A stretch of DNA of 64,000 nucleotides from Gammaproteobacteria bacterium. Lineage in GTDB: Bacteria > Pseudomonadota > Gammaproteobacteria > JAKBBU01. Position numbers and translations under genes: made by a program. Numbering within the stretch: position 1 is the first letter of the stretch; each line of letters opens with the position of its first letter. Positions 3,526-3,657 of this stretch are shown here, in pieces. Location: contig JAJFKN010000020.1 in the NCBI GenBank assembly GCA_021773195.1, forward strand, positions 7,570-71,569. The letters run 5' to 3'. The notes beneath the pieces were generated by a model. The model had not been told where the DNA came from. It searched no databases and was given only the letters and a program-made list of their open reading frames with translations.

Positions 3526-3657
3526 TTCCCGCCTTCGCGGGAATGACGTTAGTGAGTACAGGAATGACGTTAGTGAGTACGGGAATGACGTTAGTGAGTA
3601 CAGGAATGACGTTAGTGAGTACAGGAATGACGTTAGTGAGTACAGGAATGACGTTAA
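3526..3657. repeat. hairpin (TTCCCGCcttcGCGGGAA) followed by 5.6 tandem copies of a 21-bp unit GGAATGACGTTAGTGAGTACA; candidate VNTR
   Basis: Direct reading of the tandem units at 3540-3560, 3561-3581, 3582-3602, 3603-3623 and 3624-3644, with a partial unit at 3645-3657. One unit carries an A>G variant. Related copies at 46741-46805 and 62201-62270. Confidence 0.9.

Follow-up and report, generated by a model that had tools for sequence, protein, structure and literature searches.

NTS-like hairpins with one-sided tandem arrays of 5' half-sites in a gammaproteobacterial genome: possible footprints of the Ssn nuclease

The 28-nt Neisseria transformation sequence (NTS), CGTCATTCCCGCGMAVGCGGGAATCYRG, encompasses the dRS3 repeat ATTCCC-N8-GGGAAT and is bound as single-stranded DNA (ssDNA) by Ssn, a small GIY-YIG nuclease of ~94 amino acids that cuts a few nucleotides upstream of it and is inactive on double-stranded DNA and on RNA (Chenal et al., Nat Commun 2025, PMC11893778). 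Homologues of Ssn are widespread, as are degenerate Ssn-related motifs (SRM), and units of the form NTS-ssnA-NTS resemble insertion sequences; Ssn also cuts a split NTS, in which a strand with the 5' half is annealed to a strand with the 3' half, and SsnA frees a 20-nt fragment from a 75-nt substrate (PMC11893778). The dRS3 palindrome is also known from NIME arrays, in which complete copies are spaced by RS elements of 19-214 bp and which have been described as Neisseria-specific (Bentley et al. 2007, PMC1797815). The present analysis concerns a window of 64,000 nt, the whole stretch of contig JAJFKN010000020.1 that was studied, in which hairpins that very probably belong to the NTS/SRM family are accompanied by tandem units that, at the same level of confidence, are local duplications of the element's cleavage-side part. 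Such arrays are not described by Chenal et al. 2025 (PMC11893778), where the word "tandem" is absent from the text, and an earlier description elsewhere is possible.

Hairpins and tandem units of the window

Tandem arrays were mapped by direct reading, pattern search and Tandem Repeats Finder, three approaches that agree, and a stable hairpin followed by tandem units of 19-21 bp was found at three loci (3521-3657, 46740-46805 and 62198-62270), which bears out the shared architecture that an earlier note on this DNA had described. Their features are:

3521-3548, minus strand: NTS hairpin CGTCATTCCCGCGAAGGCGGGAATCCAT, stem at 3525-3544; one mismatch (last base) to the 28-nt NTS; ssDNA fold of -8.9 kcal/mol, z = -4.1.
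3549-3657, minus strand: array of five orphan 5' half-sites, period 21, built of CGTCATTCC and a tail of 12 nt (TGTACTCACTAA); the most distal unit has diverged.
46740-46767, minus strand: NTS hairpin CGTCATTCCCGCGAAGGCGGGAATCCAA; one mismatch (last base) to NTS; between msrA (46841-47317, minus strand) and an AAA_14/DUF4143 gene.
46768-46805, minus strand: array of a complete 19-nt unit (CGTCATTCCCGC plus ACCCCAA) and, distally, a truncated unit in which CGTC is now CATC.
62198-62227, minus strand: NTS-like hairpin CGTCATTCCCTGCGAAGGCAGGGAATCTAG with a 9-bp stem; -9.5 kcal/mol, z = -5.0; between convergent pckA and pilT.
62228-62270, minus strand: array of 20-nt units (CGTCATTCCCTGC plus ACCCACA); the inserted T of the hairpin's 5' arm is repeated in the units, and the distal unit has CATC.

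On the plus strand, each array directly abuts its hairpin, and the units start with the hairpin's 3' arm followed by GACGT. The hairpin of locus 1 reads ATTCCCGC-cttc-GCGGGAAT on this strand (3525-3544) and recurs with the same sequence at locus 2 (46744-46763), the minus-strand reading of both being CGTCATTCCCGCGAAGGCGGGAATCC, while that of locus 3 reads ATTCCCTGC-cttc-GCAGGGAAT (62202-62223). Tandem Repeats Finder gives 5.6 units of 21 bp at locus 1 (3540-3656, 97% matches), 1.9 units of 19 bp plus a truncated GGGAATGATG unit at locus 2, and 2.5 units of 20 bp at locus 3. Two matches to ATTCCC-N8-GGGAAT are present in the window against 0.00 expected, and GGGAATGACG, with at most one mismatch, has 14 matches against 2.7 expected. 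The stems measure 8 and 9 bp and not 7 bp as first thought, the A-T closing pair being part of the stem; likewise, the third copy, once read as carrying paired G>T / C>A changes, has instead an extra T in the 5' arm paired with an extra A in the 3' arm, an insertion that gives the 9-bp stem and is still compensatory, and the consensus GATTCCCKCCTTCGCRGGGAATGACG proposed with that reading was the product of a misaligned indel.

Read in the orientation of NTS, each unit is made up of a short tail, then CGTC, then all or part of the 5' arm, and the loop, the 3' arm and the 3' flank remain single-copy; the units are, in other words, the cleavage-side half of the element. The tails are specific to each locus and near-identical within an array, and the units therefore originated in place, from neighbouring units. 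Those farthest from the hairpin are degenerate, with CATC replacing CGTC in loci 2 and 3, and fold computation at locus 1 finds that the terminal hairpin alone folds stably and the array units do not. The near-identity of the units would imply recent growth.

The assignment to the NTS/SRM family rests on several kinds of likeness. With NTS defined, after PMC11893778, as a sequence with at most one mismatch to the 28-mer, the minus-strand hairpins at 3521-3548 and 46740-46767 are NTS copies, each with its one mismatch at the last base, and the hairpin at 62198-62227 falls outside the definition owing to its paired 1-nt insertion. The SRM expression HGTCWY-N(0-2)-YYVSBRH-N(0-5)-WNVSBRG-N(0-2)-RNCYNB has three matches in the window (3521, 20581 and 45144) against 0.23 in shuffled sequence, and the remaining copies miss it only through longer stems or loops, or through their last bases. 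The family is not limited to the three loci first reported: the same plan recurs with other stems at 45144-45229, 20290-20421 and 20460-20517, and with two solo hairpins the window holds at least eight SRM-type elements of four or five stem types. When all copies are placed in one orientation, a 5' (A)CGTCA and a 3' YCCAG flank are common to all, and the stems differ and are fully complementary; their ssDNA folds range from -8.9 to -13.3 kcal/mol with z from -3.5 to -5 (the copy at 20460, with z = -0.5, is the exception).

Shared with the published NTS/SRM-SsnA system (PMC11893778) are the 28-nt sequence itself, with one mismatch in two window copies, the hairpin with its conserved 5' CGTC and 3' C after the palindrome, the CC(A/T)G 3' flank, variant stems that include an NTSvar-like one, many intergenic copies, frequent inverted doublets, a spread across phyla and, in fetched loci, modules in which two NTS face an ssn gene (NTS->ssn<-NTS). 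The window differs from that system in having no ssn gene, in holding several stem types within 64 kb and in the tandem array of orphan 5' halves that accompanies nearly every copy. A search of one genome per species for the exact 25-mer GATTCCCGCCTTCGCGGGAATGACG returned at least 120 loci, cultured isolates included, and those listed span Bacteroidota, Chloroflexota, Planctomycetota, Acidobacteriota, Nitrospirota and all Pseudomonadota classes. The flanks of these copies are unrelated, inverted pairs are frequent, GCGGGAATGACGG-type repeats sometimes follow, and small GIY-YIG genes (Pfam PF01541) are flanked by the 25-mer in the fetched loci L020, L045 and L062. From its family membership, the hairpin would be expected to be bound as ssDNA and cut upstream by a cognate Ssn.

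Selection on the structure of the stem, which the earlier note had drawn from three copies, holds at the level of the family. For a covariance check of the kind that it had proposed, every CGTCA-N18-TCCAG in 1.6 Mb of fetched DNA and in the window was collected, the sequences being picked by their flanks alone in order to avoid circularity. The 44 distinct sequences comprise 28 with 8/8 Watson-Crick pairs (13 different stems) and 8 more with 7/8, and changes on both sides are seen at 6 of the 8 stem pairs; the observed pairing or covariation was reached by none of 500 shuffles and by no slid register. The molecule under structural constraint is ssDNA, because the single-stranded flanks CGTC and CCAG are conserved and the published specificity of Ssn is for ssDNA, with no activity on RNA. 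The small RNA or terminator that had been suggested for the hairpin finds no counterpart in the window, where the hairpins are not followed by a T-run, none of the copies coincides with a terminator-like call, and Rfam covariance models at gathering score have 0 matches.

Two window copies fit the dRS3 motif exactly, and an intergenic mosaic at 20184-20890 holds several such hairpins and is the sole NIME-like region of the window; the repeat number of NIME arrays, moreover, differs between strains (PMC1797815). Unlike NIME units, those of the window are 18-24 bp long (45 bp at one locus), contain one arm and are all derived from the neighbouring element; holding a single arm, they lie outside the strict NIME definition. 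REP, BIME and REPIN elements with their RAYT proteins (IS200/IS605-like Y1) likewise offer short extragenic hairpins, an orientation-defining 5' tetranucleotide, inverted doublets, and a small nuclease gene that is flanked by its own repeats and acts on single-stranded hairpins. They differ in that Ssn has a GIY-YIG fold without a covalent intermediate, the flanked gene of related loci being likewise GIY-YIG, in that the motif is CGTC here and GTAG there, and in that NTS is near-identical across phyla whereas REP repeats are species-specific. Tandem arrays of half-hairpins are not known as a feature of REP elements. Finally, the variable-number tandem repeats (VNTRs) used in multilocus VNTR analysis of Legionella and Coxiella are also short intergenic arrays of near-identical units whose number differs between loci, yet the units of the window are anchored to the mobile hairpin element from which they derive.

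Half-site arrays across bacteria and their proximity to ssn genes

The one-sidedness of the arrays is a general feature. Around 133 exact NTS copies from many phyla (matches listed), 33 orphan 5' halves in the same orientation lie upstream and 5 downstream, orphan 3' halves around the same copies number 3 and 5, and an inverted full partner lies downstream of ~60 of the 133. A metagenome scan for at least two half-sites followed by a full NTS returned at least 120 loci with at least 124 arrays, and the figures given below refer to the matches listed (124 arrays). Each array contains 2-8 half-sites; the identity of the proximal unit to NTS ends mostly at position 12, which is the end of the 5' arm (40/124; range 9-19), and the tails are mostly 6-10 nt long and pyrimidine-rich. 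The period has its mode at 21 (35/124; SD, i.e., standard deviation, 2.7), ranges from 15 to 31 and varies between genomes, and the NTS-type arrays of the window have periods of 21, 19 and 20. Of the pairs of neighbouring units, 64% are identical beside the hairpin and less than 40% past the fourth unit, a gradient that weakly fits growth at the hairpin end. In addition, two pairs of metagenomic loci that are ~82% related differ in unit number (0 vs 2 and 1 vs 2).

Arrays of one contig resemble each other in unit length: after removal of pairs with similar tails, the period is equal in 42% of pairs within a contig against 12% between contigs (permutation p = 0.0004). For the 8 nt directly upstream of NTS, similarity within a contig likewise exceeds that between contigs, at 0.59 against 0.33 for array-bearing copies and 0.39 against 0.28 for solo copies (loci L001-L240 and the window), and the element seems to extend a few nucleotides 5' of the published 28-mer. 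These 8 nt are pyrimidine-rich; in the array-bearing copies of the window they read C-N-C-M-C-N-N-A (CTCACTAA, CACCCCAA, CACCCACA and CGCACCTA), a pattern that the two solo copies do not have.

Arrays are also commoner beside ssn genes. An ssn-like gene is present in 19 of 120 listed array loci (633 kb) against 3 of 120 listed loci chosen by NTS alone (892 kb; Fisher p = 0.0005), and the geometry is regular, i.e., [array]-NTS-> ssn <-NTS-[array], with the arrays on the outer side, where Ssn cuts. Because Ssn cuts split NTS (PMC11893778), the one 3' arm might, in principle, make any of the array's units available for cutting. Cut sites have been mapped for N. meningitidis, N. elongata, N. wadsworthii and Wolbachia; the distance from cut to loop in N. 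meningitidis, ~18 nt as derived from PMC11893778, lies inside the range of array periods.

Possible origins of the arrays

A sequence of events can be proposed in which Ssn would nick the NTS strand, when exposed, on the upstream side of the hairpin, repair synthesis would start there and copy the tail, CGTC and the 5' arm once more as far as the stem-loop junction, and the displaced nicked 5' end would be rejoined, thereby adding one unit beside the hairpin; ordinary slippage would later expand and contract the array, and the unit length would equal the distance from the cut site to the loop. This origin is given roughly one chance in three. By the same token, it is possible, if rather doubtful, that arrays of orphan 5' halves are in vivo chromosomal footprints of Ssn, with a unit length that serves as a genome-specific ruler of the cut position and a tail that marks the true 5' end of the element.

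Several observations weigh against an origin in Ssn nicking. Neither a regular-expression search nor tblastn with two NTS-flanked GIY-YIG proteins found an ssn / GIY-YIG gene in the 64-kb window, and the cognate Ssn of this genome is assumed; the comparison of ssn frequencies, moreover, spans two collections, genome representatives and metagenome contigs. The N. meningitidis enzyme cut ~3-4 nt upstream of NTS, a position taken from the oligonucleotide descriptions in the text of PMC11893778, and a cut at that distance implies a tail of ~3-4 nt, whereas most tails measure 6-10 nt. The gradient of age from proximal to distal units is marginal (paired test, p = 0.058), and the first duplication and rejoining show no obvious microhomology; flank-versus-tail identity at the distal ends of arrays is low (0.49), and therefore ancestral breakpoints and microhomology are not reconstructable. 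The period common to a contig may reflect co-propagation of tail and hairpin instead of an enzyme- or host-specific ruler, because the upstream 8 nt, too, are more similar there. Along the entire window the plus strand has a positive GC skew, and NTS lies on the minus strand in 6 of its 8 SRMs; the strand that carries NTS is the C-rich one in 15 of 20 array-bearing fetched loci (p = 0.04) and in 5 of 6 window arrays. Strand bias relative to GC skew is weak and at most suggestive.

The main rival is plain hairpin-stalled slippage, tentative in its turn, according to which the arrays would be ordinary slipped-strand VNTRs, the hairpin in the template or nascent strand stalling replication and provoking backward slippage with Ssn uninvolved. 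It would sit well with units that are near-identical and vary in number between loci, with the two pairs of related loci that differ in unit number and with a window that lacks an ssn gene, and the preference of array-bearing NTS for the C-rich strand fits an effect of the replication strand. It does not account for the asymmetry of the arrays, since the hairpin is symmetric and only the half that bears CGTC is repeated, and only upstream (33 vs 3-5), or for the right-hand breakpoint, whose peak is at the stem-loop junction and not at the stem base, the place expected for a stall. A period that is similar within a contig even for arrays with different tails, the greater frequency of arrays beside ssn, and the absence of arrays from the other palindrome family of the window (TCCCCTSAGGGGA, 5 copies) also speak against this rival.

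A role at the level of RNA, in which the hairpin would end transcripts, stabilise them as a stem-loop or belong to a small RNA and the repeats would be protein-binding sites on RNA (e.g., CsrA GGA motifs in the lipoprotein 5' untranslated region, or UTR), could draw on the covariation of the stem and on a promoter-like site at 3408-3436 (plus strand) that would place locus 1 in a 5' UTR. It is nevertheless highly improbable, given the lack of T-runs, of terminator-like calls and of an Rfam family match, the occurrence of copies in divergent, same-direction and convergent gene contexts, and a constraint that the CGTC and CCAG flanks and the specificity of Ssn for ssDNA without RNA activity account for. 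Equally remote is a parallel with Neisseria, where dRS3 is the attachment site of filamentous phages that use an IS110/Piv-type enzyme. The modal period of 21 bp, about two helical turns, is in keeping with such a parallel, as are the standing of dRS3 as a known phage integration target and the variation of NIME arrays between strains (PMC1797815, PMC11893778); however, the periods span 15-31 and vary from genome to genome, the units are incomplete dRS3 sites because the 3' arm is missing, and no recombinase, phage or replication gene adjoins any locus of the window.

Four further candidates were rejected. A CRISPR-like array is contradicted by "spacers" that are identical within an array and just 5-12 nt long, and a terminator by the missing T-run; insertion of complete elements, nested within a hairpin already in place, predicts orphan 3' halves, which are rare, and duplication of the whole hairpin by fold-back of the nascent strand predicts units without CGTC.

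Further copies, genomic context and significance

The remaining SRM-type copies of the window are:

45144-45174, minus strand: SRM hairpin of NTSvar type, CGTCATACCGCGGCTTGACCGCGGTACCCAG; -10.3 kcal/mol; compared with the NTSvar consensus of PMC11893778.
45175-45229, minus strand: array of 24- and 21-23-nt units repeating CGTCATACC..CGCGG plus the tail CGCACCTA; distal unit degenerate.
20290-20421, plus strand: two 45-nt units, each with a terminal ..CGTCACCTCGG, followed at 20380-20421 by an SRM hairpin, CGTCACCCCGGA-(18-nt loop)-TCCGGGGCCCAG; -13.3 kcal/mol.
20460-20517, minus strand: degenerate SRM (TGTCATCCCGCAG-cttga-CCGCGG) with two 18-nt units; weak fold, z = -0.5.
20581-20608, minus strand: solo SRM hairpin CGTCACCCCGGCGAAAGCCGGGGTCCAG, without an array; -10.8 kcal/mol.
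41788-41846, plus strand: solo SRM, CCCCGGA type; its loop contains a second, small palindrome (CCTGTCCCCTGAGGGGA) as an insertion.

The fourth array locus (45144-45229) has the hairpin TACCGCGG-tcaag-CCGCGGTA followed by TGACGTAGGTGCG-type units, and its hairpin resembles the NTSvar of PMC11893778 (CGTCATACTCGGG..CCCGAGTATC). The mosaic at 20184-20890 is an intergenic region of ~700 bp with at least four SRM-type elements of three stem types, and resembles NIME arrays. Other repeats lie close to the SRMs. The small palindrome TCCCCTSAGGGGA occurs in 5 copies (5900, 20448, 41813, 41873 and 62153) against 0.06 expected, usually adjoins SRMs, lies once inside the loop of the SRM at 41788-41846 and has no tandem arrays. 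An inverted pair of the 28-nt extended hairpin ACCCCGGATGGCGAAGCCATTCCGGGGT (45244-45271 and 45297-45324) forms a REPIN-like doublet whose stem is related to the CCCCGG-type SRMs but which lacks the 5' CGTCA flank. Next to NTS locus 2, a 34-bp tandem repeat of a different family (46611-46699, 2.6 copies) contains interlocking AGGAAAGAA and TTCTTTCCT hairpins and overlaps the predicted TTG start of the AAA_14/DUF4143 open reading frame (ORF; 45347-46657, minus strand).

Locus 1 sits between a divergent MFS transporter gene (2110-3378, minus strand) and an SLT-domain lipoprotein gene (3750-4373, plus strand), a placement which the earlier note had given correctly and which gene calls and domains support; it was also right that the repeats create spurious ORFs, those with GMTLVST and RGNDVSEY being translations of the array, and the arrays yield spurious ORFs with IPAFAGMT and RLRGND peptides. 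Gene arrangement varies around the copies, from divergent through same-direction to convergent. The array of locus 1 merely lengthens the intergenic region between the MFS and SLT-lipoprotein genes and its 5' UTR, and any regulatory role is hypothetical; transcription from the promoter-like site at 3408-3436 would make locus 1 part of the SLT-lipoprotein gene's 5' UTR. Such a UTR, if made, would hold six GGA motifs 21 nt apart at 3540-3656 on the plus strand (GUACAGGAAUGA). These plus-strand units seem to resemble the CsrA SELEX motif and CsrA-binding sites.

Elsewhere in the window, a perfect palindrome, ATGTGAGTAACTACTAAT-tat-ATTAGTAGTTACTCACAT (18-bp stem, 3-nt loop), is found at 11328-11366 between two minus-strand genes. 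The Thaumatin-family domain is mostly eukaryotic. It is present here (Pfam PF00314, E = 2e-19) in a cysteine-rich secreted protein of 447 amino acids encoded at 4379-5722 on the minus strand. Beside the SRM at 41788, an ORF with an AbiEi antitoxin C-terminal domain (PF09407; 40805-41677, minus strand) points to an abortive-infection / toxin-antitoxin module. A tRNA search returned no match in the window. Exact matches to the proteins that flank the window copies are confined to one NCBI contig of 91 kb, their closest relatives are at no more than 69% identity, and the named matches of PckA are from Gammaproteobacteria and Legionellales metagenome-assembled genomes and from Aquicella siphonis; judging from these sequences, the host is probably an uncultured, Legionellales-like gammaproteobacterium.

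The hairpins themselves are already explained by the family published in 2025, and the window represents one more genome, Legionellales-like in its probable affinity, that is colonised by SRMs. By extrapolation, at least eight SRMs per 64 kb would amount to some hundreds per genome; SRM numbers in that range have been linked with host-associated bacteria (PMC11893778). The arrays are plausible candidates for typing markers. What may be added to the published picture is a one-sided array of the element's cleavage-side half that occurs across bacteria, has a similar unit length within a contig and is commoner beside ssn. If the arrays are by-products of Ssn nicking, they provide a testable model for the multiplication of the element and for the role of Ssn outside Neisseria. 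They would then be the first sequence-level handle on how NTS/SRM are made and spread, the cut sites of Ssn would be readable from genomes alone, and the arrays would predict where uncharacterised members of the Ssn family cut, enzymes whose interest lies in their use as ssDNA tools.

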